NCBI GenBank assembly: GCA_045612895.1
Contig: JAZKZY010000122.1
Span: forward strand, 4,171 to 68,170
Length of the DNA stretch: 64,000 nt
Direction: 5' to 3'
Source of the DNA: Candidatus Scatosoma sp.
Lineage (GTDB): Bacteria > Bacillota > Clostridia > Christensenellales > Borkfalkiaceae
The notes below the pieces were generated by a model. That model worked only from the letters and a program-made list of their open reading frames with translations. It was not told the DNA's origin and did not search any database. Both the position numbers and the translations under genes were made by a program. Below, piece by piece: positions 3,547 to 63,668 of the stretch. Positions within the stretch are counted from its first letter, which is position 1, and each line of letters opens with the position of its first letter.

Positions 3547-4266
3547 ATGGGAAGTATGCAGGTTGGACAAGTGGTTATTCGCACGATGGGCGCAAATGCG
3601 GCGTGCGTGGAATCGCTTGTGCAAGAACTGAATATTCAAGCCAAAAATCTCGCATCATGCCACCATGTACGCGTTCACGATGAGGATATCCTTACAATTG
3701 CCTATGGTAACGACACTCCGAAAATGTTGATGGACGATATTTTACGCAGGTGCGTTGAGGAGTTAGATGTCTCGATTTATGCTATGGAAGATTGCTCGTT
3801 GGAGCATCAGGTGGTTAATCTGTTAAAGGTCCGTGGTAAAACGCTGAGCGTTGCGGAATCTTTTACGGGAGGCGGAATTGCGAGTCGTATTACTTCCGTA
3901 TCTGGGGCAAGCGAGGTTTATTTCGAAGGGATCAATGCGTACAACGAAAACGCAAAGATAAAAAGGTTGGGCGTTTCACCGCAAACCCTTGAAAAATACG
4001 GCGCTGTATCCGAACAAACGGCCTATGAAATGGTGGTTGGGTTATTACGTACAGGTGATTGCAACGTAGCGATTGCAACGACGGGGTTGGCTGGACCGAA
4101 TACGGATAAATCGGGACTGCCCGTAGGCTTGTGCTATATTGCGGTTGGTACAACGGAGCGGATACGCGTATATCAATATCGCTTTGAAGGTACGCGAGAA
4201 GAGATTACGAAAAAAGCAATCAATTATGCGTTGTATTTGACGTATAAGCAGTTGAAAGATTTATAA
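3547..4266 (+). CDS. cinA: CinA-family protein with only the C-terminal PncC-like (NMN amidohydrolase) domain
   Basis: LSVAESFTGGGIASRITSVSGASEVYFEGINAYNENAKIKRLGV and ATTGLAGP match the CinA C-terminal domain. It lies immediately upstream of recA. No MoCF-binding N-terminal domain is present. The start codon is uncertain. Confidence 0.75.
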   Translation: MGSMQVGQVVIRTMGANAACVESLVQELNIQAKNLASCHHVRVHDEDILTIAYGNDTPKMLMDDILRRCVEELDVSIYAMEDCSLEHQVVNLLKVRGKTLSVAESFTGGGIASRITSVSGASEVYFEGINAYNENAKIKRLGVSPQTLEKYGAVSEQTAYEMVVGLLRTGDCNVAIATTGLAGPNTDKSGLPVGLCYIAVGTTERIRVYQYRFEGTREEITKKAINYALYLTYKQLKDL

Positions 4267-4295
4267 TTGAAAAAATGTGATTAGGAGATATATAA

Positions 4296-5321
4296 ATGGC
4301 AAACGAAAAGAATACGGAAAAAATGAAGGCTTTAGACGCCGTTTTGCTTCAAATTGGAAAGCAATACGGGAAAGGCTCCATTATGCGTCTTGGCGAAGAG
4401 GCAGGCAATACGGAGATTGAGGTGATCCCCAGCGGTTGCCTTACGCTTGACCTTGCGTTGGGTATCGGTGGGTTCCCTCGCGGTAGAATTATCGAAATCT
4501 ACGGTCCTGAATCCTCGGGTAAAACGACGGTTGCATTGCACGCGATTGCGGAAGCGCAAAAGATGGGCGGTGTAGCGGCGTTTATCGACGCGGAACATGC
4601 GCTTGACCCTGTTTACGCAAAGAAATTAGGCGTAAGCTTGGATGATTTATACGTTTCTCAGCCTGATACAGGTGAACAAGCGTTGGATATCACGGAAGCG
4701 TTGGTAAGAAGCTCGGCGGTGGATATTATCGTTGTGGACTCCGTTGCGGCATTGACCCCCAAGGCGGAAATCGAAGGGGATATGGGGGATACGCACGTTG
4801 GTTTGCAGGCACGTTTGATGTCGCAGGCATTGAGAAAGTTGACCGCAATCGTTAACAAATCGAAAACTTGCGTTATTTTCATCAACCAGTTGCGTGAAAA
4901 AGTGGGTGTTATGTTTGGTAACCCCGAAACGACCCCTGGTGGTAAGGCGTTGAAATTCTATGCAAGTATGCGTTTGGATATCCGTAAGATGGACGCATTG
5001 AAGGATGCGGATGGTGTTATGGGTAATAGAACGAAAGCAAAAGTTGTAAAAAATAAACTTGCGCCTCCCTTCCGTCAGGCAGAATTTGACATCGTATTCG
5101 GTGAAGGTATTTCGCAGGAAGGATGTATCATGGATATGGGTGTACAGTTTGACATCATTGCGAAGAGTGGCTCGTTCTTTAGCTATAACGGTGCAAAAAT
5201 TGCACAAGGCCGTGAAAAGTTGCGCTTGTTCTTGAGAGAAAATCCTGAGGTGAAAGCGGAAATTGAACAAAAGATCCGTGACGTAGCAAACGGTAAAATT
5301 GAAGAAGAAAGCGAAGAATAA
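4296..5321 (+). CDS. recA: Recombinase RecA
   Basis: Full-length match to the RecA pattern: [22 protein letters not shown], Walker [50 protein letters not shown]. Confidence 0.97.
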
Positions 5322-5562: not shown

Positions 5563-7182
5563 ATGCACGATTTTAATTTGAGCGTCCTGTTTCTCGCTGG
5601 CACAGGAACGACAATCGCGATTGCAGCGGCGGCTGCGGCGGTTGCTTTGGGTTTAGGTGTGGTATTAGCGTTGTTCTTCTATAAGAAGAGCACCGAGAAG
5701 AAAATCGGTTCAGCAAATGACCGCGTAGAAAAAATCATTAGCGATGCTGAAAAAGAAGCCGAACGCATCAAAGCGCAAGGAAGAGAAGAAAGCAAGCATG
5801 TATTAAAAGAAGCATTGCTTGAAGCAAAGGAACAGGATTTAAAATTAAGAAACGAATTTGAACGCGAAACCAAAGAAAAGAAAGCTGAAATTCAGCGCAT
5901 GGAACAGCGTTTGACCCAAAAAGAGGATGCAATCGACAAAAAGTCGGAGGCGCTCGAACAGCAAAAGGCAAATCTTCTTAAAAAGGAAGAAGAAGTTGTT
6001 CATTTGCAGGAAAAACTCAATTCCCAACACGAATTGATGGTGCAGGAACTTGAAAAAGTTTCTCAACTCAGCCGTGAAGAAGCGAAAAAACTTTTGACGG
6101 AAGAGATTTTGGAAGAAACCCGTCATGACGTAGCAATTCAGGTCCGCAACCTTGAACAAAAGGCAAAGGACGAGGCGGATATCAACGCGAAGAAATTGAT
6201 TGCGCTTGCTATCCAGAAATGTGCGGCTGACCAGGCATCGGAAATCACCGTTTCCGTTGTACCTCTTCCCAACGATGATATGAAAGCACGTATTATCGGT
6301 CGTGAAGGTAGAAACATCCGTGCGTTGGAAAATGCAACGGGTATCGAACTTATTGTCGATGATACCCCTGAGGTGGTTATTCTTTCGGGCTTTGACCCTG
6401 TTAGAAGAGAAATTGCACGTTTGTCGTTGGAACGTTTGATCAACGACGGCCGTATCCATCCCGCTCGCATTGAAGAAACGGTGGAAAAGGTTACTCGTGA
6501 AATGGATATGCAAATCAAAGAAGCTGGTGAAGCGGCTGTATTTGAGGCAGGCATCTTCGGCTTACACCCCGAATTGATTAAGTTGATCGGTCGTTTGAAG
6601 TTTAGAACGAGCTATGGCCAAAACGTTTACAAACATTCGGTAGAAGTGTCCATGCTCGCTGGCCAAATGGCGGCTGAGCTTGGTTTGGACGTTAGCTTTG
6701 CAAAGCGTGCGGGCTTGTTGCACGATATCGGTAAGGCAGTTGACCAAGAACAAGAAGGTACCCATATCCAAATCGGTGCTGATCTTGCGAAGAAATTTAA
6801 GGAAAACGCAAATATCGTCAATGCAATTATGGCACACCATGGCGACGTAGAGCCCAAGACGATTGAAGCAGTGCTCATTCAGGCAGCTGATGCCATTTCG
6901 GGCGCTCGTCCTGGCGCAAGACGTGAAACGGGTTCTAACTACGTAAAACGTTTGGAAAGATTGGAAGAAATCGCTTCTGGTTTCCACGGCGTAGAAAAGA
7001 GCTATGCAATTCAAGCAGGTAGAGAAGTGCGTGTTATTGTTAAACCTGAACAGGTTGACGATGCGCAGGCACTCTTCCTTGCAAAGGATATCGCCAAGAA
7101 GATTGAGGCGGAATTGGAATACCCTGGTCAAATCAAGGTAAACGTTATCCGCGAGTTCCGTGGCGTTGAATATGCGAAATAA
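5563..7182 (+). CDS. rny: Ribonuclease Y
   Basis: N-terminal transmembrane helix, long Lys/Glu coiled coil, KH domain ([17 protein letters not shown]), HD domain (LLHDIGKA ... MAHHGD). The recA-rny order is typical of Firmicutes. Confidence 0.95.
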
Positions 7183-51927: not shown

Positions 51928-51959
51928 CAAAAAAGATGTCGACGTTTCCATCGACATCC
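51928..51959 (-). terminator. Orphaned minus-strand terminator next to the partial tRNA-Trp copy
   Basis: GATGTCGA (51936-51943) pairs with TCGACATC (51952-51959). On the minus strand the hairpin is followed by TTTTTTG. It sits just downstream (minus sense) of the 17-nt tRNA-Trp 3' fragment. Confidence 0.6.
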
Positions 51960-51983
51960 TTTCGTGTGGCAGGGGCTATAAGA
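51951..51983. repeat. Island-bounding direct repeat, distal copy (partial tRNA-Trp 3' end)
   Basis: TGGCAGGGGCTATAAGA (51967-51983) is identical to 59693-59709. The adjacent ATCGACATCCTT (51951-51962) also recurs at 59676-59687. Confidence 0.8.
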
Positions 51984-52148
51984 CTTACTCGCGGGGCGAG
52001 TATTTCTACATATTTTTGATTATTTGCGTATAAAACGCCTTAAATCTCGTTAAAAATCATGTATTTTTTGCGAGATTTTTTCTTTTTTCAAAATTTTTCT
52101 TGGAACTTTTAGATAATTTTCTATCTAGACTTTAAATATTAAATATTC

Positions 52149-53413
52149 GACAAAATTTGTAATAACTTTAAAGTGTACTAATTAATGTCAAAAATGGCTT
52201 CATTGCCAAATTTTGACTCCTCGGTTGAATCAAAGTAATTTAGTGCTTCCTTAGGCGTTTGGTATCCTAAGCATGAGTGTAATCGTTCGTTATTGTAATA
52301 CTGCACGTACTTTTCAATCGATTCAAAGAATTCTTCTGGCGTATTATATTTTCGGCGATAGATTTCTTCTTTCTTTAATGTGGCAAAGAATGATTCCATA
52401 TGTCCATTGTCATGGGGAGTTCCTTTCTTTGAGAATGATTGCGTTACACCGTGTGCGCGAAGATAAGAACTAAAACTTAAACTTGTATAAATGCCACCTT
52501 GGTCACTATGAAAAAGTAAACTAAGTGGGGCGGGACGGATTTGGTTGGCTGCTTCAAAAGTTAATGCAGCAAGTTGTGTGTTGTTCCGCGTTGAGATTTT
52601 ATAGGAGAGTATATATCTACTTGCAATGTCTTGGATAGTACAAATATAAAATTTAACTCCACAAATTTTGAACTCAGTAACGTCGCTTACCCAAGCAACA
52701 TCGGGACAAGAAAGAGCATAACGCTTTTGCCATGATAAAAGGTTTGGATGGCGGTTATCATATTTTTGTGGCGGTCTTGAAGGCTTTTCGCCAATTTTAA
52801 CGATAAGATTGTTTTCTTTCATTAATCGAGAAACTAACCGTGGGGAAGTTGTATATCCCATCCTTTTTAATGTGGCGCAAATACGTTTCGACCCATATCG
52901 CCCCTCATTTTTATTGAAGATGTCAATAATATGTTTAGTTAATTCTTTTCGGCGACGTGCATTCTTGGTTTCAATATTTTTTATGTATCTATAATATTTT
53001 GCCCTATCAAGACAAAGGCTTTGGCATAAAAATTTGACCGTATAATTTTTGCTTTGCTTTTTTACGGCTTCTAATTTTTCAATTTCAGATGATTGAGGCG
53101 AGCAACCAGTAATGCGATATATTTCTAATTGCTTTAGCATTTTCTCGTTCTGAGCTTTTAGTTCTTTGTAATCGTTTACGCTAATTAGTTCTCCCGCGTA
53201 TTTACATATCATACGGTGTTTAGTAATCCAATATTGTAATGTACTACTTGGAATTTTGTATTTCGCACATAATTCCTTAGCGGAAGTTCCTCTTAAATAT
53301 TTGCGAACCATCTTTAACCTAAATTCTTCAGTATATCGCGTATTTCTCATAAAATCCTCCTATCAATTCTAATTTTATGGGGTTGTATTGTAACCCGAAA
53401 TTGCGAATTTGTC
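52149..53413 (-). mobile_element. IS3-family insertion sequence (boundaries tentative)
   Basis: A transposase ORF plus a weak terminal inverted repeat: GACAAAATTTGTAAT (52149-52163) against the reverse complement of 53400-53413 (GACAAATTCGCAAT). I could not identify a target-site duplication. Confidence 0.45.
52178..53350 (-). CDS. IS3-family transposase (HTH + DDE/rve integrase core) as a single 390-aa ORF
   Basis: N-terminal HTH (TSAKELCAKYKIPSSTLQYWI), a leucine-zipper-like stretch, HTH_21-like GSKRICATLKRMGY, and the DDE triad context WVSDVTEF ... HSDQGGIY ... NGHMESFFATLKKE. Confidence 0.85.
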   Translation of the reverse strand: MRNTRYTEEFRLKMVRKYLRGTSAKELCAKYKIPSSTLQYWITKHRMICKYAGELISVNDYKELKAQNEKMLKQLEIYRITGCSPQSSEIEKLEAVKKQSKNYTVKFLCQSLCLDRAKYYRYIKNIETKNARRRKELTKHIIDIFNKNEGRYGSKRICATLKRMGYTTSPRLVSRLMKENNLIVKIGEKPSRPPQKYDNRHPNLLSWQKRYALSCPDVAWVSDVTEFKICGVKFYICTIQDIASRYILSYKISTRNNTQLAALTFEAANQIRPAPLSLLFHSDQGGIYTSLSFSSYLRAHGVTQSFSKKGTPHDNGHMESFFATLKKEEIYRRKYNTPEEFFESIEKYVQYYNNERLHSCLGYQTPKEALNYFDSTEESKFGNEAIFDIN

Positions 53414-53478
53414 AAGAGGAGAGATGGAGAGAGAAGATATAGCGACGAATTTTTAAACGAGGAATATATTGGTGGCAC

Positions 53479-53507
53479 TTTACAAATTAATGTACTTATG
53501 CTATAAT
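53479..53507 (+). promoter_or_regulatory. Near-consensus promoter of the four-gene island operon
   Basis: TTTACA (53479-53484), 17 nt, TATAAT (53502-53507), about 35 nt before the first ORF. Confidence 0.6.
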
Positions 53508-53542
53508 ACAAGTAATAACAACTAAAACAGTGGAGAATGAAA

Positions 53543-53848
53543 ATGTTTCGCGAACGCGGAAAATATATTGATAAGAATGTGACCTATTCTTCGAAAAATA
53601 GAACAACATATAACTACTGGGCTAACCCAGAATTCTCAGTATTGAAAGAGGATTGGACTCTTATTTTGAACGATTGGGTTAATCGCAAACTCTATCTTTT
53701 TAGAATTCCGGCAAAAGCCATTTCACCACAGGAGCTGGTTGCCAGAAATGATAAGCCAAATCTCATCGATATTCAGATTCTTGAAGATAATCCCAGTTTC
53801 GTGGATAGAAGAAGTGAGTATAGTTTCAGAGATTTTTTGATTGATTAG
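53543..53848 (+). CDS. Hypothetical small protein (101 aa; 103 aa if started at 53537)
   Basis: GGAG at 53532-53535 is better spaced for ATG 53543 than for ATG 53537. I recognise no motif. It is the first gene of the operon. Confidence 0.55.
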   Translation: MFRERGKYIDKNVTYSSKNRTTYNYWANPEFSVLKEDWTLILNDWVNRKLYLFRIPAKAISPQELVARNDKPNLIDIQILEDNPSFVDRRSEYSFRDFLID

Positions 53849-53889
53849 ATTGATTATTAAACAAAAAAGACTAATAAAAAGGGGGTAAT

Positions 53890-55434
53890 ATGAGTAACGA
53901 TACAAGTATTTTCGCATTTATATTTGACAGCGGCAGACTTGGCGATATGTGGTATGGCCGAGTGGTTTTTGAATATATGATGAAGGGAAAAGAGCTAACT
54001 CGTAATCCCTCAAAGATGATAGTTTCTTTGGGCGATATTCCCATTTATAAGCGGTATATTGATATAGAGCCATATGTGATCAAAGATGAGTATTGCACAA
54101 TAGATTTTGATGCACAGAATAATACAACCTCGTTTAAGGACTATCCTTATTGCTGGATTGTTGAAGATTTATCGATTGATATAGCACAAGAGATAGACAA
54201 GCGATTGAAGGAAACGCTAAAAGGTTATGTTGGCTTATCTCGTATTGATTTTAGAAACGCATCGCCTAGACAGCAGTTTTGGAAAAATATGATTCGCGAG
54301 TTTACATTATTTCAAGATACTATTACATGCTTTCAAGATCCAGAACTTGAAGGTGCATTCATGTATTGGGAAATTGCCACGGAAATGGGTTATAAAATTG
54401 AGTATCAGGCAGATTATGTTTGCATAGAAGAATCGGCTTTACTTCAATCTAGCCATATCAAAGCGGATGATGATTTGGAAATTAAACAACCGAGGAAAAA
54501 AGACATGGAAAGGGATTTATTAACATTGAATTTTTCCATACGGCAGGAACTTCAAATCTCCGGAGTGCTGATTTGGCGTGCGATAAACGATTTGGATAAG
54601 GTGCGCTTTTTGGAGGAGAATCAATGCAACGAGCAACTTATAGAATATCCTTTTTTGGCTCTCTATCATTGCTCTCAAGGTGTAGAAAGAATTCAAAAAG
54701 CCATTATTGAATTGATTTGCAAGAAAAAGCATATTGAGGAAAAAGCAAAAGACGCGGTTTATGATTTGCTCTTTAGCCATTCACACGATAAATTAAATCA
54801 GTGGATTGAGCAGCAAGAAAAGATTAAGTTTAGCAAAAATTGCAGAAAACTTATTAACATACTTGTCAAGTTTTATAATTCTGTAAGATATGCAAGATAT
54901 TCTGATGATGGGTGTAACAAAACTACCGCACCAGAGTTTCAATTGCTTTTGGAATTAAAGAATAAGAATAGTTCGGATTTGGACAGTGATATAAAAAATA
55001 TATTTGGACGCTGTTTGGGAGAATTATGTCATATTTATTTTAATTTGTATTACGAACTTTGCTATGATTTAAATATTTATGCGTACGAATTGGAATATGA
55101 TTCGGCAGCTACGATAGTTTATCATATCAATGATAAGCCTGTTAATTTGTATGAAAAATTAAAGCAAAGGCAAAATGCAAAGAAAGAAGTTATATATTGG
55201 TTAATTAAAAAAGCAAGACAATATCCTAAATATTCTATGACTAAAGAAGCTCCTTTGAAATTCGATCCTGAAATGATTGAGGGCTTTTTGTCTGATTTGA
55301 TTTTTAACCCAGAAGATGGATATGGGTTCTTTGATGAAGTAGATTGTCTGTATGACAATTTGTGTGCTGAAAACAAGGCGAAATGGTTGGATAGATTAGA
55401 GATGCTGAACTATATTATTGACAGAGAGTATTGA
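53890..55434 (+). CDS. Hypothetical 514-aa protein (no family recognised), upstream partner of the OLD/UvrD pair
   Basis: Strong RBS AAAGGGGGTAAT. No signal peptide or TM helix. The C-terminal half looks helical. No nucleotide-binding or nuclease motif that I can name. Confidence 0.65.
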   Translation: MSNDTSIFAFIFDSGRLGDMWYGRVVFEYMMKGKELTRNPSKMIVSLGDIPIYKRYIDIEPYVIKDEYCTIDFDAQNNTTSFKDYPYCWIVEDLSIDIAQEIDKRLKETLKGYVGLSRIDFRNASPRQQFWKNMIREFTLFQDTITCFQDPELEGAFMYWEIATEMGYKIEYQADYVCIEESALLQSSHIKADDDLEIKQPRKKDMERDLLTLNFSIRQELQISGVLIWRAINDLDKVRFLEENQCNEQLIEYPFLALYHCSQGVERIQKAIIELICKKKHIEEKAKDAVYDLLFSHSHDKLNQWIEQQEKIKFSKNCRKLINILVKFYNSVRYARYSDDGCNKTTAPEFQLLLELKNKNSSDLDSDIKNIFGRCLGELCHIYFNLYYELCYDLNIYAYELEYDSAATIVYHINDKPVNLYEKLKQRQNAKKEVIYWLIKKARQYPKYSMTKEAPLKFDPEMIEGFLSDLIFNPEDGYGFFDEVDCLYDNLCAENKAKWLDRLEMLNYIIDREY

Positions 55435-55465
55435 AAAACGTTAGGTTGATACGACGGAGGTAGAG

Positions 55466-57475
55466 ATGTACATATATAAGTTAGCCATTAAAAACTTCAG
55501 AACTTTCGGTGCTGATGGTGTTAGTTTTTTGTTTAATAAGGGGATAAATGTAGTTATCGGTGAAAACAATAGCGGAAAATCGGCAGTAATTGATGCTATA
55601 CGGCTGGCTTTTTCAAGTGTTTCCTATAAAAAGGAAATTTATTTTAGTAAAACAGATTTCCATATAAGTTATGATGGACACAAAGCAACGAGCGCTAATA
55701 TAGACATTTACTTGAAGGATGTGCCTAAAAATTTAATTGAAATATGGGATCCTGAAGAATCTGAATGCGGGGAATTTCATGTGAGTTTTACATTAGAAAA
55801 AACGCCTTCGGGATATGAAAGAGTAAAATGTAAGGCATGGGGTGGCAAATGTGAAGGGAATACATTGTCAGCAGATACGTTGGAAGCAATCAACATAGCG
55901 TATTTGGGAGCATTGAGAGACGCAGAAAATGAAATGAAACCATCACGAAATAGTAAGCTTGCTATGTTGCTTGAAACACTTGCATCCACTCCCGAAGAAA
56001 AAGATAGTTTGGTTTCAAAATTGAGGAATGCAAATCAAGAAATATTAGAAACCGAGTCGCTTAATAGAACTAAACGAACGATTAATGAAAACTTGTTTGA
56101 TTTGGAACAACCTCTTTTACATCAACAAATAGATTTAGGATTGGTTGAACCTAAATTTGAATCTATTATGTCATCTTTGCGATCTTGGATTGTTCCGAGA
56201 TGGTATTTCGTTGAAAAAAACAATCCCCAATATAATGAAATTCTGTTATTGTTTGATTCTGATGATTTAAAATCATTAATCCAAGTTCAGGCAAACGGAG
56301 CATTTATTGATGTAGATGCCTTTTTAGAAAAAAAGAGCGAACTTTCATCCGAGCACAAAGGATTACTACTGTCTTTGAAAAAACATTCTTTTGAATTATA
56401 TCAAAACGGACTGGGATATAACAATTTGTTGTTCGTGTCTGCGGTTTTGGGAGATATGTCATTTGCTAAATCAGGTGTATATTCTAATCTGTTTTTGGTT
56501 GAAGAACCAGAGGCACACTTACATCCTCAATTACAAGAGCTTGTTCTCGGGTTCTTTTATAAAAAGGTGAAGCAATCTGATAATATACAGGTTATTATGA
56601 CATCACATTCTCCGACCTTAGTTTCTAGGATTGGTATTAAACATATAAATTTGCTCTACGAATATCAGCATATGATATTTAATTATCCATTTATTAATTG
56701 TTCGTTAGACGAGGAAGAACAGGATTATTTGGAAAAATATTTAGATGTTACCAAATCGCAACTATTCTTTGCAAAAGGCGTTATTTTTGTAGAGGGGATT
56801 AGCGAGGCGATTCTTTTGCCCGAGTTTGCAAAAGTAATAGGTCGGCCGTTAGATATGTATGCGGTAGAGCTTGTCAATATAAATGGCGTGGGATTCTCAC
56901 CTTTTGCAAAAATGATTAAAATCCCGAACGAAGATTATGGATTTGCTAAAGCTTCCATTATTACTGATGATGATAGATGCTCTGACAAAGATGACAAGAC
57001 TACATATATATCTAAAGACTTAGATTTTGAGGATGATCTCAGTGCGTTGAGCGAGAGAATTAATAAAGGAATTCCTTCGGACAGATATCAAAACATATTG
57101 ACGCTATGTAATGACAATGTAGTAAAATGTTATGGCGCTACCAAGACATTTGAATATGAATTAGCTCTTGTTGACAACAATGTGCCATATATTTTAGAAG
57201 CAATAGAATCAGTCTATCCGATCGTCGGTAAAAAGCTTAAGGAGAAAGTAGAAACTGAGTCAAACACTCAAATCAAAGCATTGATGATTTGGTTGTTTGT
57301 ACAATCTCGAAATTCTGCTAAAGCACAGATTGCTCAGGCTTTAGGACGCTTGCTAAAAAAACAGATTGGAAAAATTGAAAGCGGTGTGAGAATAGAAAAG
57401 CCTTTTGTGATACCAGAGTATATACAAAAAGCTATTTATAATGTAACAAAGGATGCTGAAGGAGCGAAGGAGTAA
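55466..57475 (+). CDS. gajA: OLD-family ATP-dependent endonuclease (ABC-type ATPase + TOPRIM), GajA-like
   Basis: RBS GGAGGTAGAG. Walker A GENNSGKSAVIDAI; Walker B/D-loop LFLVEEPEAHLHPQLQ; signature-like YQNGLGYNNLL; TOPRIM Glu in VIFVEGISEAILLP; DxD in IITDDDRCSD. Confidence 0.8.
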   Translation: MYIYKLAIKNFRTFGADGVSFLFNKGINVVIGENNSGKSAVIDAIRLAFSSVSYKKEIYFSKTDFHISYDGHKATSANIDIYLKDVPKNLIEIWDPEESECGEFHVSFTLEKTPSGYERVKCKAWGGKCEGNTLSADTLEAINIAYLGALRDAENEMKPSRNSKLAMLLETLASTPEEKDSLVSKLRNANQEILETESLNRTKRTINENLFDLEQPLLHQQIDLGLVEPKFESIMSSLRSWIVPRWYFVEKNNPQYNEILLLFDSDDLKSLIQVQANGAFIDVDAFLEKKSELSSEHKGLLLSLKKHSFELYQNGLGYNNLLFVSAVLGDMSFAKSGVYSNLFLVEEPEAHLHPQLQELVLGFFYKKVKQSDNIQVIMTSHSPTLVSRIGIKHINLLYEYQHMIFNYPFINCSLDEEEQDYLEKYLDVTKSQLFFAKGVIFVEGISEAILLPEFAKVIGRPLDMYAVELVNINGVGFSPFAKMIKIPNEDYGFAKASIITDDDRCSDKDDKTTYISKDLDFEDDLSALSERINKGIPSDRYQNILTLCNDNVVKCYGATKTFEYELALVDNNVPYILEAIESVYPIVGKKLKEKVETESNTQIKALMIWLFVQSRNSAKAQIAQALGRLLKKQIGKIESGVRIEKPFVIPEYIQKAIYNVTKDAEGAKE

Positions 57476-57477
57476 TT

Positions 57478-59232
57478 ATGTATGATTTTACAACAGAGCA
57501 AAAAGACTTTCTTTCTTCAGCAGGAAAAGTAGTATTACACGCATGTCCTGGCAGTGGAAAAACTACAGTTGTTGCTCAGAAAGTAATAAACTATTTAATG
57601 AGTTGGAATCGACCACACCAAGGCATTGCAGTGTTATCATTTACTAATGTTGCAAGTGAAGAAATTGCGCGGCAAGCGCGAGAGATATTACCTCAAGGAT
57701 ATGATATTGGAACACCTCACTTTGTGGGCACATTAGATAGTTTTATCGATAATTATATATTCTTGCGCTTTGGGTATTTGTTGTTAGAAACTCCGAAAAG
57801 ACCTTTGATTGCAACTAATGATATATCAAACGGTTATAGTTATTGGAGAGAGGATTGCTATAGAAATGGTTGCGTATCTAATATTGATCAATTTAAGTGG
57901 GAAGAAAATGGAGACTTATCCAAAAATGGAAATTCAATAGATTGCCCTGGAAGCGGAAGATATGCTCCACCATGTATTCAATTCAAAAAAATGATGCTCG
58001 AAAAAGGGCTATTTTTTCAAAATGAAATAGCAGGGTTAACCTGTTCATTATTGAAAAAATATTCTCTTATAGCTAAAAGTATAGCAGAGAGATTTCCAGT
58101 CATTATATTGGATGAAGCTCAAGACACATCTATAGAACAAATGGAAATTTTGGATTTGTTGTGCGAAGCGGGGCTGGAATCAATATTTATTGTAGGAGAT
58201 CCCGATCAAGCTATTTATGAGTGGAGAACAGCAGATCCAGAATCTTTTATGAAAAAAATGTATGACGAGAGTTGGTCGCATTTAACATTGTCTGAAAATT
58301 TCAGAAGTTCGCAATTAATATGTAACGCTACCTATGTTTTTTCAGATATATTGAAAGAAAGGTGTGCAAATGAAGCAAAGGGAAATTCGGCTAATTTCAC
58401 TCAAAAGCCAGTTCTCCTTCTTTATGAGAATGGTACGAGTAAAGATGCGATTATAACAAGATTCAATGAGTTGTGTAAAAACAATGATATAGAAATTTCT
58501 GCGGATAGTGTTGCTATAGTAACCAGAGGAAAAATACATTCTGATTATGATGTAAAAGATTTGTGGAAAACCCCGGAAACAGAGTTTTTGGCTAGAGCTT
58601 CTTACGAATGGTCGTACGGTAACAGAAGAAAAGCGTATGAAATTTGCGAAAAAGCAATATTTCAACTTGTTGTAAAGCCGTTTGAGAAAATTGATATTTC
58701 AATTGAGAAAGATGTTTCAAAGGTGGTACAATATGATGTATGGAAACAAATGATTATTGATATTCTTGTATCGTTGCCTTCTGCTGACGAAGCTTGCGGT
58801 TCTTGGATACAAAATACAAGAAATGCTGTTCAAAGCTCTATGGAAAACTATGGCGTGACATTACGAAACGGTATGGTGTTGATAGATGCGCTTAAAATTA
58901 AATCGCGAGACACTGAAAAACCTAATTACAAGGAATTTCCAGTAAAAGTCTTTTTTGAAAAGAAAATCCAAAGCGAGTACACAAAAGCCTCTGTCCATGG
59001 CGTTAAAGGCGAAACGTACGATGCGTTGCTTCTTTTGATTGAAAGCACAAGAGGAACTACACTTACTCCATCTTTTCTTGCTAGTGGCGACACAAGCAAA
59101 GAACTTATGAGAATTGCATATGTCGCAATGACAAGGCCACGTAAATTATTGGTTGTAGCCATGCCAAAAAGCAGAGTTGATCTTTCGAAAAGATTTCCTA
59201 GAGATAAGTGGGATTATATTGATCTTACATAA
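57478..59232 (+). CDS. gajB: UvrD/Rep/PcrA-type superfamily-1 helicase, GajB-like
   Basis: The start lies 2 nt after the upstream stop. Motif I ACPGSGKTT; II VIILDEAQDTS; III IVGDPDQAIYEWR; IV LSENFRS; V SVHGVKGETYDALLLL; VI IAYVAMTRPRKLLVV. Confidence 0.8.
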   Translation: MYDFTTEQKDFLSSAGKVVLHACPGSGKTTVVAQKVINYLMSWNRPHQGIAVLSFTNVASEEIARQAREILPQGYDIGTPHFVGTLDSFIDNYIFLRFGYLLLETPKRPLIATNDISNGYSYWREDCYRNGCVSNIDQFKWEENGDLSKNGNSIDCPGSGRYAPPCIQFKKMMLEKGLFFQNEIAGLTCSLLKKYSLIAKSIAERFPVIILDEAQDTSIEQMEILDLLCEAGLESIFIVGDPDQAIYEWRTADPESFMKKMYDESWSHLTLSENFRSSQLICNATYVFSDILKERCANEAKGNSANFTQKPVLLLYENGTSKDAIITRFNELCKNNDIEISADSVAIVTRGKIHSDYDVKDLWKTPETEFLARASYEWSYGNRRKAYEICEKAIFQLVVKPFEKIDISIEKDVSKVVQYDVWKQMIIDILVSLPSADEACGSWIQNTRNAVQSSMENYGVTLRNGMVLIDALKIKSRDTEKPNYKEFPVKVFFEKKIQSEYTKASVHGVKGETYDALLLLIESTRGTTLTPSFLASGDTSKELMRIAYVAMTRPRKLLVVAMPKSRVDLSKRFPRDKWDYIDLT

Positions 59233-59390
59233 CAAACTGGCAGTAATCGCAACTCGTTATTACCGCCTTAATACTACCGAAAAGTAGCCGAAAATGAGCT
59301 AAAAATATCCGTAAGTAGTCAAATATGTGGTCAAAGGCGAAAAATGGGCTTGTGGGGCCCTGAAAGTAGGGAAGAACAAGCCCATTATGT

Positions 59391-59430
59391 ATATCGCGAA
59401 AACGCGAGATTTCGCGAGGATTTGCGAGAT
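59391..59430. repeat. Four phased 10-nt repeats (consensus nnCGCGAGAT)
   Basis: ATATCGCGAA / AACGCGAGAT / TTCGCGAGGA / TTTGCGAGAT in tandem. TTTGCGAGAT also occurs at 52067-52076 near the other island end. Confidence 0.5.
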
Positions 59431-59469
59431 AAAAAAAAGAAATTCGGAGGTTCGTTATGAACCTCCGAA
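59431..59469 (-). terminator. Minus-strand rho-independent terminator following the tRNA-like fragment
   Basis: TTCGGAGGTTC (59443-59453) / GTTAT / GAACCTCCGAA (59459-59469). The A8 tract on the + strand gives a T-run on the minus strand. Confidence 0.65.
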
Positions 59470-59470
59470 C

Positions 59471-59498
59471 TGGTCTGAGTGACAAGACTTGAACTTGC
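59471..59498 (-). pseudogene. tRNA-like 3' fragment (T-arm + acceptor 3' strand + ACCA) with no 5' half
   Basis: The reverse complement reads GCAAG-TTCAAGT-CTTGT-CACTCAG-A-CCA. No matching CTGAGTG acceptor 5' strand or canonical anticodon arm occurs in the next 90 nt. Confidence 0.45.
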
Positions 59499-59632: not shown

Positions 59633-59679
59633 AAAAAAACGCCGATTTTTGACTACAATAAAAAGTGTATCAAAAATCG
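59633..59679 (-). terminator. Terminator downstream of the intact tRNA-Trp
   Basis: CGATTTTTGA (59643-59652) pairs with TCAAAAATCG (59670-59679). A T7 run follows on the minus strand. The loop is large (17 nt). Confidence 0.5.
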
Positions 59680-59709
59680 ACATCCTTCCATTTGGCAGGG
59701 GCTATAAGA
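59676..59709. repeat. Island-bounding direct repeat, tRNA-proximal copy
   Basis: ATCGACATCCTT + 5 nt + TGGCAGGGGCTATAAGA, matching 51951-51983. Confidence 0.8.
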
Positions 59710-59766
59710 ATTGAACTCATCTCATTGGTTTTGGAGACCAAGGCACAACCACTATACCAAACCCCT
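59693..59766 (-). tRNA. tRNA-Trp (anticodon CCA)
   Basis: The hand-folded reverse complement is 74 nt. Acceptor AGGGGTT/AGCCCCT (one G-U); D arm GTAT-AGTGGTT-GTGC; anticodon arm TTGGT-CTCCAAA-ACCAA; T arm ATGAG-TTCAATT-CTTAT; G discriminator and encoded CCA. Confidence 0.85.
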
Positions 59767-59808: not shown

Positions 59809-59873
59809 TTATTTTTTGATATAGTTTTGTGAAAAATTTTCAAATTAAAAAAAATCTTTTCGGCAGGTTTAAA

Positions 59874-60386
59874 ATGAGCGAAAAAAAGAAGGTGATTTTA
59901 TATACGGACGGTGCGTGTTCGGGCAATCCTGGACTTGGCGGCTATGCAGGGATTTTGATATATGGAGAGCATCGTCGTGAATATAACGCAGCGGAAAAAC
60001 AAACCACGAACAATCGTATGGAGGTTTTGGCGGTTATAGAGGGCTTAAAACGCCTGAAATATCCTTGTATAGTGGATGTTTACAGCGACTCCGCTTACAC
60101 GGTTAATGCCTTTTTAAACGGCTGGATTTACGCGTGGAAAAAGAACGGGTGGAAGAAAGCAGATAAAAAGCCCGTTCAAAACGTGGATTTATGGGAAGAA
60201 TTGTATGCCCTTACCCAAAAACACGAGGTTACCTTTCATAAGGTAGCAGGGCATGCAGATAATGAACTGAACAACCGCTGTGACGAGTTGGCTCGCGCGG
60301 CGATTGTGGACTTGCGTGCAAGCTTACCGCCTGAAGAGTTGGCTGAACTTGAAAATATTCCGCAAAAAGAGGAAGAAGAGGCGTAA
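59874..60386 (+). CDS. rnhA: Ribonuclease HI
   Basis: LYTDGACSGNPGLGGYAGIL, TNNRMEVLAVIEGL, DSAYTVNAF, VTFHKVAGHADNELNNRCDELA (the DEDD catalytic pattern). The ORF track starts at GTG 59829; ATG 59874 gives the usual N-terminus. Confidence 0.9.
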   Translation: MSEKKKVILYTDGACSGNPGLGGYAGILIYGEHRREYNAAEKQTTNNRMEVLAVIEGLKRLKYPCIVDVYSDSAYTVNAFLNGWIYAWKKNGWKKADKKPVQNVDLWEELYALTQKHEVTFHKVAGHADNELNNRCDELARAAIVDLRASLPPEELAELENIPQKEEEEA

Positions 60387-60426
60387 AGCAGTTATACTTT
60401 GGCTGTTATTTTGCTATACTAATACT

Positions 60427-61371
60427 ATGGCAAAAGGCGAAAGAGAGAAACTGGATAAGAAGGATAGAAGTAAAATGCGGGGGGCATGGCTCACTTTGAC
60501 CGCATTTTTTTCTTTGTCCATTGCAGGGATAATCCTTTCCATATTATGTTTGTCAAATACGACCATAGCCATTGTTGTCAAATATAATACGCTGTGCAGG
60601 GTGTTGTCCATTTTATTCTTTTTAGGGTTGTGCGCAGCGGCAATTTGGTTGGCTATTCTTCGCAAAGACGTTGCGGTAAAAATGCTATTTACTATTTATT
60701 TTTTACTTCTGTTTGCTCTTTCCCTTGTCTTAATTTTTCAAAAGACGGGATTTTTTGACCTGATTTCTACCTCTAACGGATTGCAGGCGTATATAGAAAG
60801 GGCAGGTATTTGGATGCCGCTTTTGTATATTTTACTGCAGTATTTTCAGGTGATAATTTTACCGATCCCGAGTATCGTCAGTACGGTTGCAGGCGTTGCA
60901 ATATTTGGCGCATTCAAAACAATGATATTCAGCTTGACGGGGATTTTGCTTGGCTCTTTTACGGCGTTTTTTATCGGTAGAAAGTTAGGGAATAAGGCGG
61001 TTGTTTGGATTGTAGGGGAAGAAATCTTAGAAAAGTGGCAAAAAAAACTGAAAGGGAAGGATAATCTTGTTTTAACGATTATGTTTATTTTGCCCTTATT
61101 TCCTGATGATATTTTATGCTTTGTGGCGGGTTTATCCTCTATGAGCAATCGTTACTTTATCACAATGACGACGGTTACACGTGCAATCGGGATAACGGCA
61201 ACCTGCTATTCGTTTGACTTTATTCCGTGGAATACCTGGTGGGGTCTTTTGATTTGGGCAGCGTTGATTTTGGGGGTGATTACGGTCTTTATACTTGTGT
61301 ATAAAAAGATGGATTCCTTACAGGCATTTTATAAAAAATTGAGAAAGAATCAAAAAAACAGCACAAAATAG
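60427..61371 (+). CDS. TVP38/TMEM64 (DedA/SNARE-associated) family membrane protein
   Basis: Polytopic protein with QVIILPIPSIVSTVAGVAIFG, FFIGRKLG and LPLFPDDILCFVAGLS. The listed ORF start at 60280 overlaps rnhA and is unlikely. The real start (60427 or 60475) is uncertain. Confidence 0.75.
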   Translation: MAKGEREKLDKKDRSKMRGAWLTLTAFFSLSIAGIILSILCLSNTTIAIVVKYNTLCRVLSILFFLGLCAAAIWLAILRKDVAVKMLFTIYFLLLFALSLVLIFQKTGFFDLISTSNGLQAYIERAGIWMPLLYILLQYFQVIILPIPSIVSTVAGVAIFGAFKTMIFSLTGILLGSFTAFFIGRKLGNKAVVWIVGEEILEKWQKKLKGKDNLVLTIMFILPLFPDDILCFVAGLSSMSNRYFITMTTVTRAIGITATCYSFDFIPWNTWWGLLIWAALILGVITVFILVYKKMDSLQAFYKKLRKNQKNSTK

Positions 61372-61564: not shown

Positions 61565-62932
61565 ATGGATAAAATTCAGTTGTTACAAGAAAGAAAAGCG
61601 CAGGTTGAAGCGGCGGGTAAGGATATTCGCGCGCAAATTACTGCATTGATTGATGCGGAAAGCTTTGTGGAATTGGCGGCTTTCAGCTTTTCTAAAAATG
61701 AGTTTTATGGTGAAACGGCACAAGGGGAAGGCGTTGTAACTGGTTTTGCAACGATAGACGGTTACCCGTTCTATATCGTGGCGCAAAATTATGCGGTTAT
61801 GAACGGCGGTATGTCGAAAGCAAATTGCGAAAAGATCGCAAAATGCTTGGATGCGGCTGAAAAGAACTACACGCCGGTTATCTACTTGCTTAACACGCAA
61901 GGCGTACAAATCGGTGAAGGTGTTACCGTTTTGGAGGGCTTGGCGAAGCTTTTGATGCGTAGCACGCAGTTGAAAGGGGTTGTGGCACAATACGCAATCG
62001 TGAATGGTGACGTATTCGGCTCCGCGGCAATGTTGGCTGCAATCGCGGATTTCACCTTCTTTATTGAAAAGAAGAGTGTGCTTTCCGTAAATAGTCCCTT
62101 TGTTTTGTCTGCGAAAGCAAATAAAAACATTTCCAAGGAAGAGGTTGGCAACGCAAAAGCGTTGGCTAAATCGGGCATTCCTGCCTTTGAACTGGCTGAT
62201 ATGACGGCTGTTCGTGAAAAAATTGTTGCAATCAACGATTTGATTTCCGTTCCTATGGTGGAAACGGAATTGAACCAGAGCGTGCCTGCTTTGAACGAGG
62301 GCGTTTCCGCGGCGTCGTTGCTTGCAATTTTTGAAACTGCAATCGAAATCGGCGCATTGAATGAACCTGAAGTAAAAACGATTATCGGTCGTATCGGCGG
62401 TATTGCTGTGGCGGCGGTTATCTTTGACGGCGGTGAAAACGGCGTAGAATTAACGGCTGAAAAAGTGGCTAAGATTAAGGCGTTTGCTGAACTTGCTTGT
62501 TGCTATGGTTTGCCTTTCATTACGTTTGCGGACGTGAAGGGAATTTGCCCTTGCATGCAGGTAAATAACAGCCGCGTTATGAAGGAAATTACCGAATATC
62601 TTTCGATGTTGGATACGATTGATACGGCAAAAATTGCGGTTGTATATAAGAAAGCAATCGGCTTGGGCTATTCGTTGTTTGCATCGAAATCGGTTGGCTT
62701 TGATTACACTTGCGCATTTGCGAATGCAAGCATTGCATTGTTTGACGGTGTACAGGGTGCGCAAATTGAGCTTGGCAATGAAAAAGTGGACAAGGCAGAG
62801 CTCGTTGCTCGCTATGCGGATGAAAACTCTGATCCTATCCATGCGGCAAAGAATGGATATATTGATGCGATTATCGAACCGCAGTTTGTGAAACAGTATT
62901 TGATTGCATCATTGCAAATGCTTGCAAAATAA
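61565..62932 (+). CDS. Acyl-CoA carboxyltransferase (alpha subunit of a Na+-translocating biotin decarboxylase, MmdA/GcdA-like)
   Basis: RBS GAAGGAG. Carboxyltransferase-domain pattern (GVVTGFATIDGYPFYIVAQN ... GGMSKAN ... PVIYLLNTQGVQIGEG). The operon context with gamma, biotin-carrier and beta subunits supports it. Confidence 0.75.
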   Translation: MDKIQLLQERKAQVEAAGKDIRAQITALIDAESFVELAAFSFSKNEFYGETAQGEGVVTGFATIDGYPFYIVAQNYAVMNGGMSKANCEKIAKCLDAAEKNYTPVIYLLNTQGVQIGEGVTVLEGLAKLLMRSTQLKGVVAQYAIVNGDVFGSAAMLAAIADFTFFIEKKSVLSVNSPFVLSAKANKNISKEEVGNAKALAKSGIPAFELADMTAVREKIVAINDLISVPMVETELNQSVPALNEGVSAASLLAIFETAIEIGALNEPEVKTIIGRIGGIAVAAVIFDGGENGVELTAEKVAKIKAFAELACCYGLPFITFADVKGICPCMQVNNSRVMKEITEYLSMLDTIDTAKIAVVYKKAIGLGYSLFASKSVGFDYTCAFANASIALFDGVQGAQIELGNEKVDKAELVARYADENSDPIHAAKNGYIDAIIEPQFVKQYLIASLQMLAK

Positions 62933-62941
62933 GAGGTGGCT

Positions 62942-63310
62942 ATGTTGACGAATTTATTAACAAGCGCATCTTTACCTGAAGGGTATCAAGATGTATCAGT
63001 CGGTACGGCGGCGTTGTACGCCTTGATTGGTTACTTGGTGGTCTTTGCAGGAATTGCGTTTTTGATTTTTATCGTATGGCTTGTAGGTAAGCTTATGGCG
63101 CAAGCAAAACTTGCACCAAAAAAAGAGAAAGTTGATACTAGTCCTGCGCAAAACTTGCCGATGCAAAACCTTGAGTCTGAAGACGAGGTAGATGAAGAAA
63201 CCGTAGCGGTTATTATGGCGGCGCTGATGGCGTATTATGAAGCAAACAATCCTAAATGTGAATTTACAGTAAAAAGAATTAAAAGAGTAAGGAGAAACGA
63301 TTATGCGTAA
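62942..63310 (+). CDS. Decarboxylase gamma/delta small subunit (OadG-like membrane anchor)
   Basis: A single N-terminal TM helix (ALYALIGYLVVFAGIAFLIFIVWLVG) and an acidic tail with VAVIMAALMAY. ATG 62942 is preferred over GTG 62936 because of the RBS AAGAGGTGG. Confidence 0.65.
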   Translation: MLTNLLTSASLPEGYQDVSVGTAALYALIGYLVVFAGIAFLIFIVWLVGKLMAQAKLAPKKEKVDTSPAQNLPMQNLESEDEVDEETVAVIMAALMAYYEANNPKCEFTVKRIKRVRRNDYA

Positions 63311-63668
63311 TTTTGTTGTGAATGTGAATGGTAAGGCTTTTCAAGTTAGTGTAGAAGAAGTTGGCGCAGGTGCATCCGCACCCGTAGCTGCACCCGTTGT
63401 AGCGACTCCCGTAGCAGCTCCTGCTGCTCCTGTTGCGAAAAAGGCAACGCCTGCAAATGGGGAACAAGTAAAAGCACCTTTCCCTGGCTTGATTAAAAAC
63501 CTTTTGGTTGCAGAAGGCGCAACGGTTAAGAAAGATCAACCCATTTTGGTTTTGGAGGCAATGAAGATGGACAACGATATCGTTGCTCCTTGTGATGGTG
63601 TAGTTAGCTTCCAGGTTGCAAAGGGCGCAAACGTGGAATCCGATGCTGTTTTGGCGGTTATCGGCTAA
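63303..63668 (+). CDS. Biotin carboxyl carrier protein subunit
   Basis: Ala/Pro-rich linker and the biotinylation motif VLEAMKMDNDIVAP. Confidence 0.85.
   Translation: MRNFVVNVNGKAFQVSVEEVGAGASAPVAAPVVATPVAAPAAPVAKKATPANGEQVKAPFPGLIKNLLVAEGATVKKDQPILVLEAMKMDNDIVAPCDGVVSFQVAKGANVESDAVLAVIG

Follow-up and report, generated by a model that had tools for sequence, protein, structure and literature searches.

Gabija is a two-gene defense system whose products, GajA and GajB, form a nucleotide-sensing, DNA-nicking complex (PMC13069673; bioRxiv 10.1101/2022.08.21.504612), and the canonical pair of genes suffices for defense in published work (PMC13069673). Tmn co-localizes with Gabija and synergizes with it through the GajA ATPase (bioRxiv 10.1101/2022.08.21.504612). 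In the 'type II Gabija' (Liu-DS1; Nucleic Acids Res 2026, PMC13069673), GajA is replaced by GajC, a split MazF-like protein. Here, we analyzed a Gabija locus at positions 53537-59232 of a 64,000-nucleotide (nt) stretch, called the window, of contig JAZKZY010000122.1 from Candidatus Scatosoma sp. A gene for a 514-aa protein (g2) lies immediately upstream of gajA and gajB, and a shorter open reading frame (ORF), g1′, precedes it. We consider it probable that the locus is a Gabija system stacked with an independent candidate defense gene, g2, which is recurrently paired with Gabija. The four ORFs are as follows:

53537-53848, + strand: g1′, 103 aa; an alternative ATG at 53543 gives 101 aa
53890-55434, + strand: g2, 514 aa
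55466-57475, + strand: gajA, 669 aa
57478-59232, + strand: gajB, 584 aa

The initial annotation, made from the letters of the DNA, had described four co-oriented ORFs separated by 41, 31 and 2 nt. Re-reading the window, we find the same four same-strand ORFs and the same gaps, the gajB start codon lying 2 nt past the gajA stop. Genes 3 and 4 had been called Gabija, or a class 2 OLD nuclease followed by a UvrD helicase, and the PADLOC, Pfam and PDB matches all agree with this call. Gene 3 matches the PADLOC GajA profile PDLC00071 over its full length (1.2e-165, residues 1-664) and carries Pfam AAA_15 at residues 1-386 and OLD-like_TOPRIM at 434-503. Its translation shows GENNSGKS, LVEEPEAHLHPQLQ, VEGISE and ITDDD, covering the Walker A, signature/D-loop and TOPRIM motifs, and the closest PDB entries are the class 2 OLD nucleases 6nk8 and 6njv. 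Gene 4 matches the PADLOC GajB profile PDLC00138 (2.1e-158) and Pfam UvrD-helicase and UvrD_C, with the GajB chains 8jqb, 8j4t and 8sm3 as the closest PDB entries.

The pair thus shares with described Gabija the strong GajA and GajB profile matches and the adjacent order of an AAA_15 plus OLD-type TOPRIM protein and a UvrD superfamily 1 helicase. It differs in its subtype, PDLC00071/PDLC00138, which is other than that of the structurally characterized Bacillus cereus GajA; the latter gave no phmmer match to the window GajA at E ≤ 1e-5. It also differs in travelling within a three-gene cassette, with g2 immediately upstream. Judged by these matches, genes 3 and 4 are a complete canonical two-gene Gabija, and as such they add one more ordinary member to a system already known. 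The window GajAB presumably acts as described for Gabija, the GajA ATPase sensing nucleotide status and then, by analogy, licensing DNA cleavage by the TOPRIM domain inside the GajA-GajB complex. Searching plasmids with GajA for close relatives that lack g2 returned matches of at most 30% identity only and was hence uninformative.

We followed g2 through 29 genome and 71 metagenome loci, in which ORFs were called, neighbors were clustered and GajA and GajB profiles were searched. Dereplication at 90% identity gave 60 g2 lineages. A Gabija pair immediately adjoins g2 in 8 of the 60, always co-oriented with it, in these arrangements:

g2, gajA, gajB: window/L104, L002, L004/L037 and L028
g2, then a different gajA, where the contig ends: L055
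short gajA′-gajB′, then g2: L001/L033; and L065/L083/L093, where g2 is only 35% identical to the window g2
gajA″-gajB″, then g2: L010

Twenty-two lineages hold a solo g2, flanked by 2.5 kb of sequence or more on either side and without a conserved neighbor. The flanks were too short to judge in another 18, and the remainder are g2 copies too fragmentary to score. Gabija was never found elsewhere than directly beside g2 in flanks of ±7-8 kb. The adjoining pairs belong to three PADLOC subfamilies (00071/00138, 00102/00148 and 00085/00107) and come in both gene orders. The g2-Gabija gaps, as estimated from where tblastn matches start and ORFs end, are about 9-110 nt in seven lineages and about 400 nt in L010. 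On the g2 tree, Gabija adjacency is concentrated in the clade of the window, and it occurs also in two distant clades. The sister lineages L072 and L083 differ in whether a Gabija pair separates a Fic gene from g2, and lone + strand g2 copies lie amid − strand genes in L007 and L008. Stk2 (PADLOC, 3.6e-220) directly adjoins g2 in three lineages (L011:6005-7522; also L010, L043 and L096). Other recurrent neighbors, read by eye, look like AbiH-like, Dcm-like, Fic, recombinase and relaxase genes and insertion sequence (IS) elements.

We judge the association of g2 with Gabija to be non-random, which does not show g2 to be a Gabija subunit. For the expectation that the 514-aa gene keeps synteny with OLD/UvrD pairs the picture is mixed, eight lineages having an adjoining, co-oriented pair and 22 a solo g2. 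The initial annotation had left open an extended system or two stacked systems, and the second fits better because g2 is solo in most lineages. By its neighborhoods, g2 is not a core Gabija subunit but one of a separate family of self-sufficient proteins, mostly found alone in the setting of mobile elements and defense islands. It is probably an independent single-protein defense module of the abortive-infection type, which would have been placed beside Gabija repeatedly as the pair is advantageous together, by analogy with Tmn and Gabija.

Tmn appears to offer the best analogy for g2, being a single-gene system that functions by itself but often adjoins Gabija and cooperates with it (bioRxiv 10.1101/2022.08.21.504612; PMC13001434). 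However, Tmn is a KAP/YobI-type transmembrane P-loop NTPase, whereas g2 is predicted to be a soluble protein with an alpha/beta and a helical part. We also rejected g2 as a Tmn itself, as it has no PADLOC match, no Pfam P-loop domain and no membrane-type segment annotation in its model. The GajC operon resembles the window locus in that both depart from the canonical Gabija layout by encoding a further protein other than GajA, but the window GajA is intact and g2 is additional and unrelated to GajC. An identity of g2 with GajC was rejected for the same reason, GajC being a MazF-like replacement of GajA.

Given the recurrent pairing with at least three Gabija subtypes, a functional g2-Gabija partnership is possible. 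In its strongest form, g2, GajA and GajB would make one functional three-gene 'extended Gabija', with g2 as an accessory sensor, regulator or second effector working through or with GajAB, in this clade at least. We think this unlikely. The order g2, gajA, gajB is kept down to 56-57% identity in g2 and 67-69% in GajA with estimated gaps of about 9-31 nt, and the cassette recurs in at least three genomic contexts (window/L104, L002 and L004/L037). In the element slot described below, precisely these three genes move together, g2 adjoins three PADLOC Gabija subtypes co-oriented and in both orders, and the majority of informative lineages in the window g2 clade are Gabija-linked. But at least 22 lineages have g2 with neither Gabija within 7-8 kb nor a conserved partner, tiny plasmids carry the core C-terminal domain by itself, and g2 adjoins Stk2 too. 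The g2 family is also tiny compared with Gabija, so the vast majority of Gabija systems must lack g2, and two genes are enough for Gabija defense (PMC13069673).

A related idea is that g2 represents a new-fold family of single-protein anti-phage effectors that cooperates specifically with Gabija, the three-gene module being assembled repeatedly with different subtypes. We hold this tentatively and rather doubt it. Such a g2 might either co-opt the GajA ATPase or GajAB, or guard against inhibition of Gabija. Should g2 cooperate with Gabija, the system would have a second example of a companion gene that exploits it, of a Firmicutes type, after Tmn in E. coli.

As a protein, g2 is a clean candidate for a new defense family. 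We gathered about 100 full-length g2 clusters (103) of 34-96% identity, all annotated as 'hypothetical' and without a Pfam domain, and an exhaustive profile search extended the relatives to 440. Most of the 440 are 300-400 aa long and match positions 215-510 only, so the C-terminal helical domain forms a wider family of its own. The AlphaFold2 model of g2 (predicted local distance difference test score, pLDDT, 87.4; predicted template modelling score, pTM, 0.86) has an alpha/beta domain at about residues 1-200 and an all-helical C-terminal domain at about 210-510. Foldseek found nothing significant for this model (best E 0.49 in the PDB and 0.23 in BFVD); its best matches were weak ones of the N-terminal domain to ferredoxin-like/S6 and RepB-OBD structures. 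No PDB sequence matched g2 by phmmer or the profile of the g2 or C-terminal-domain family, and g2 matched no PADLOC family, candidate families included, at E ≤ 0.01. The description of genes 1 and 2 as unassignable holds, neither having a Pfam, NCBIfam, PHROG or PADLOC family. Judged by the model and these searches, g2 founds an unannotated family without a significant fold match in the PDB or BFVD.

The residues D13, S14, E35 and D58 are invariant in the N-terminal domain of g2. In the helical domain, E220, H297, Y329, R333, Y334, E400 and E433 are invariant, and G264, E266, R267 and K270 are nearly so. The helical domain may hold the catalytic or signalling core, and the N-terminal alpha/beta domain may be a sensor or regulatory add-on. 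Compared with L104, the three cassette genes are under purifying selection, with ratios of nonsynonymous to synonymous substitution rates (dN/dS) of 0.19 for g2, 0.13 for gajA and 0.28 for gajB.

Several assignments of g2 were tried and rejected. The stretches FDSG, SLGD and SHSHD can be read by eye as PIN, TIR, TOPRIM, HAD or HD motifs, but none of these folds came up in Foldseek, and conservation is lacking for the HD doublet. HEPN was set aside in the absence of a Pfam match, a Foldseek HEPN structure or an invariant Rx4-6H in the alignments. Faint HEPN matches (E 0.002) were seen in 2 of 75 C-terminal-domain relatives, together with single faint CARF_HEPN and Cas13-ApeA matches; beyond these isolated HEPN-type matches, the C-terminal-domain family is without an assignment in Pfam, PADLOC or the PDB. 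A phage origin was also rejected, with one IMG/VR locus and no INPHARED match.

Some relatives of g2 have a different architecture. In P0062 (741 aa), an N-terminal Abi_2 (PF07751) domain is fused to a full g2, and P0084 and P0090 (766 aa) carry about 250 extra residues without a Pfam match. At L115:3789-4952, a Pkinase gene lies immediately upstream of a stand-alone homologue of the g2 C-terminal domain. Distant relatives of this domain occur on plasmids of Bacillus (B. cereus group), Lactococcus (dairy) and Lactobacillaceae, the stand-alone domain being carried by Lactobacillaceae plasmids of 6.5-17 kb. One of them, L. plantarum plasmid p4 (L120, NZ_CP068769.1, 6498 bp), encodes the 356-aa relative WP_202861386.1 at 3980-5050 as almost its only accessory gene.

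Gene 1 proved to have a different history. A single-sequence search returned about 10 close relatives, and a profile search returned 169 clusters, nearly all of them 189-191 aa long and many with an N-terminal Pfam RelB domain (PF04221). Its members consist of a RelB/DinJ ribbon-helix-helix domain, followed by a disordered linker and a beta-rich domain of about 100 aa. The AlphaFold model of the full-length protein has a pLDDT of 84.8, rising to about 95 in the C-terminal domain, and Foldseek matches its N-terminus to DinJ with a probability of 0.9-0.99. A PD-(D/E)XK or restriction-endonuclease-like nature of the C-terminal domain had weak fold hints only (E ≥ 0.13) and is not claimed. No RelE/YafQ-type cognate toxin gene was seen adjoining g1.

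The window ORF corresponds to residues about 88-186 of this ~190-aa gene, so that the beta-rich C-terminal domain alone survives. L104 holds an intact 190-aa g1, followed by the 514-, 669- and 584-aa genes. It is 96% identical to the window over 53537-59494, and the match begins 249 nt inside its g1. In the junction alignment, L104 and L106 continue through the linker codons. At 53537 in the window and in L030, a promoter-bearing sequence abuts ATGAAAATG, the internal Met-Lys-Met codons of the full-length gene. At the other end of the window copy, the last 4 residues, among them a terminal Tyr that is invariant in the family (Y190), are lost through a CAG>TAG change; the ancestral stop is the TAA at 53858-53860. 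Full-length relatives match DinJ structures and, marginally or below the curated cutoffs, Pfam RelB and NCBIfam RelB_DinJ, and the window ORF has no Pfam or NCBIfam match to a RelB/DinJ domain. The family therefore shares its N-terminal domain with the RelB/DinJ antitoxins and differs in adding the beta-rich C-terminal domain, while the window copy lacks exactly the shared domain.

The survey agrees with this history. The initial annotation implied that the ~100-aa gene might accompany OLD/UvrD pairs in other genomes, and no other g2 or Gabija locus has it; in the 100 other g2 loci, g1 was found alongside g2 only in near-identical copies of this island. By these comparisons, gene 1 is the 3′ fragment of an element backbone gene and not a Gabija component, because it is a truncated backbone gene that precedes unrelated cargo elsewhere.

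The annotation had also raised an extended four-gene system. That the four ORFs, the 101-103-aa gene among them, together make up a single undescribed OLD/helicase system is now hardly conceivable, and the synteny survey has already refuted it. Co-oriented, tightly spaced ORFs behind one strong promoter and without an internal terminator would suit such a system, and the intact L104 too has g1, g2, gajA and gajB consecutively. But the window g1 is truncated at its 5′ end and nonsense-mutated at its 3′ end, and full-length g1 follows recombinases in elements with unrelated cargo. It is absent at L002, L004, L028, L001, L010, L083 and the remaining g2 or g2-Gabija loci. The promoter ahead of the four genes is, moreover, non-ancestral. 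It most likely lies at the end of a transposable element:

52101-53536 (ends approximate), − strand: IS3-family IS, with a 390-aa transposase ORF at 52178-53350
53479-53507, + strand: promoter-like site TTTACA-17-TATAAT, TG-extended, agreeing with the consensus at 11 of 12 positions

The transposase scores 278.5 bits against NCBIfam transpos_IS3 (NF033516; cutoff 160) and has the Pfam domains rve, rve_3, HTH_21 and HTH_Tnp_1. The outer 186 nt of the IS (53351-53536) contain a promoter-like site for the transposase (53415-53387, − strand) and the outward + strand promoter. The single near-consensus promoter proposed for the four genes is thus present, and it is the best + strand promoter-like site within 51.8-59.8 kb; what did not stand is its place in the ancestral operon, to which it is foreign. 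Promoter-like sites are not in excess in the region, 35 being found against 31.7 expected by shuffling. Upstream of 53537, the sequence runs without a break into the transposase gene and is common only to L030 and the near-identical contig L032. Since it is absent from the intact L104, the 53479 promoter is not the ancestral operon promoter, and from its contiguity with the transposase it most likely belongs to the IS end. L106 lacks it as well.

Because the ORFs are tightly spaced on one strand with no terminator between them, this outward promoter most likely drives one transcript covering the g1 tail, g2, gajA and gajB. Scanning the + strand over 53537-59232, we found no credible terminator, in agreement with the initial annotation. 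The IS would thereby rewire the expression of a defense operon while disabling the element that carries it.

Some points weigh against a Gabija merely stacked with an independent g2, or against this history of the locus. About 6 of the 8 informative lineages in the window g2 clade (≥56% identity) are Gabija-adjacent, so dependence on Gabija is possible within this clade. Most g2 loci come from metagenome-assembled genomes or metagenomes, and genomes with a solo g2 might encode Gabija elsewhere. The candidate defense role of g2 is drawn from its genomic neighborhoods only, and co-transcription is read from the layout of the genes. The g1 tail retains an ORF with good Shine-Dalgarno spacing, also intact in L030; from the ATG at 53543 a GGAG lies about 8 nt away, a better spacing than for the start at 53537. 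A residual function of this tail is conceivable. Finally, the IS termini are poorly defined. Their terminal inverted repeats show weak, imperfect similarity only, no second IS copy that would define the ends was found among the fetched loci or viral contigs, and no target-site duplication was found, as expected if an adjacent deletion occurred.

The GC content drops from about 0.43 to about 0.34 over 52-59.5 kb. The initial annotation placed the operon, as defense cargo, in an AT-rich, tRNA-associated island next to an IS, and the GC profile, a tRNA-Trp gene, direct repeats and the IS3 transposase, which passes its cutoff, all bear this out. The borders and parts of the island are:

51950-51986: left direct repeat (attachment-site, attL-like), the left border of the low-GC island; a copy of the tRNA-Trp 3′ end and adjacent bases
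53861-59240, + strand: swappable cargo cassette, exactly g2, gajA and gajB
59241-59470: conserved right flank of the slot, about 230 nt, non-coding, from a four-way alignment of the window, L104, L106 and L108
59471-59516, − strand: 3′ fragment of a tRNA-Pro, 46 nt, an attachment-site (att) remnant carried by the element
59676-59712: right direct repeat, overlapping the tRNA-Trp 3′ end; 59676-59766 is the right island border
59693-59766, − strand: tRNA-Trp (ARAGORN; Rfam tRNA)

The direct repeats are 37 nt long and 89% identical in a blastn self-match, aligning as ATCGACATCCTT.C.T.TGGCAGGGGCTATAAGA. Two tandem tyrosine recombinases lie upstream of full-length g1 and were found in L104, L106, L108, L110, L112 and L113; a tblastn search of the window with the recombinases of these sister elements gave no match. 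The second recombinase (Int2) is 98% identical ahead of g1 in L104, L106 and L108/L110, which carry three different cargos, implying recent cassette exchange. After g1, the elements hold:

L104: g2 and Gabija
L106: a PDC-M11A candidate, an HTH gene, a 123-aa gene and DUF2971
L108/L110: SMODS cyclase, E2-CBASS and Sa_NUDIX, a CBASS operon
L031: HNH-SAVED
L112-114: rhodanese/DUF5714/LMWPc genes (rhodanese/arsenate-reductase-like)
L030: a 272-aa coiled-coil membrane protein

Homology to the sister elements stops at 53858-53860 and restarts at about 59239-59241, which is 7-9 nt past the gajB stop. These breaks define 53861-59240, with g2, gajA and gajB, as the cassette. What is new at this locus is the g2 family with its recurrent Gabija companionship and the cassette-swapping element, the Gabija pair being known. 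With near-identical backbones and a slot bounded to the base pair, the element is a natural cassette exchanger that may be mined for further unknown defense genes.

The slot also bears on whether g2 is an immune gene at all. It could be a mobile-element accessory gene for maintenance, exclusion or regulation, hitch-hiking beside Gabija through island dynamics, but this seems improbable to us. In its favor, recombinases, a relaxase and IS transposases dominate the neighbors of g2, relatives sit on small plasmids, and no PADLOC family or candidate family matches it; it is also near-absent from phage collections, with no hint of a phage-derived function. However, any Gabija near g2 is always immediately adjoining and co-oriented, never scattered, the recurrent pairing spans different Gabija subtypes, and the same slot otherwise carries CBASS, PDC-M11A and HNH-SAVED defense cargo.

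By this comparison with its sisters, the locus is a decayed, immobilized integrative element beside tRNA-Trp, of which the region studied forms the cargo end. The ancestral layout would have been that of L104, with two recombinases, g1, the cargo slot, the conserved flank and a tRNA fragment. In the window, the recombinases and the native promoter are gone, as is the 5′ half of g1, and the IS3 element occupies their former place. Such a layout resembles tRNA-targeting elements with exchangeable defense cargo in its conserved recombinases and backbone, its sharply bounded slot and its repeats of a tRNA 3′ end. It differs in the two tyrosine recombinases, the RelB/DinJ-fusion gene and the hairpin-bearing right flank, and was not matched to a named family; the window copy is in addition degraded, lacking the recombinases and carrying the inserted IS3. 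We take the layout to be reminiscent of the Tn554-type TnpA/TnpB/TnpC transposons.

ARAGORN finds a complete tRNA-Pro(ggg) at the position matching the tRNA-Pro fragment in L106, L108 and L109, and none in the window. As the element family normally sits at tRNA-Pro(ggg), the window island, with its tRNA-Pro remnant inside a tRNA-Trp-flanked island, looks composite or relocated. The counterparts of the conserved right flank are L104:7180-7410, L106:5157-5390 and L108:~6730-6960. The flank starts with the hairpin GGCrGyAATCGCA...ATTryCGCC, in which pairing seems to be kept by compensatory changes, and bears a second hairpin, GGGCTTGT...ACAAGCCC. A − strand intrinsic terminator lies at its end (59471-59441). 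Over the island and the conserved right flank, tRNA-Trp was the sole Rfam match, so the flank itself has no Rfam family. Its role could be that of a site at which cassettes are exchanged by recombination, of a terminator or of a small RNA.

L030, from a related genome, shows the same junction of IS end and g1 fragment. Its positions 420-1267 are 95% identical to 51967-52158 plus 53212-53860 of the window, without the IS interior (52159-53211), and its cargo is the 272-aa coiled-coil membrane protein listed above. Its chromosomal flank, with an MgtC-like gene, is only about 69-78% identical to the window. This points either to horizontal spread of the truncated module or to a cargo exchange later than the IS event.

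Downstream of the island, we noted by eye, from translations only, housekeeping-looking genes within 59829-60386, 60280-61371 and 61565-63668. We take them to include an RNase HI-like ORF and a multi-pass membrane protein and, further downstream, presumably a set of carboxyltransferase, small membrane subunit and biotin-carrier genes resembling a decarboxylase sodium-pump operon.

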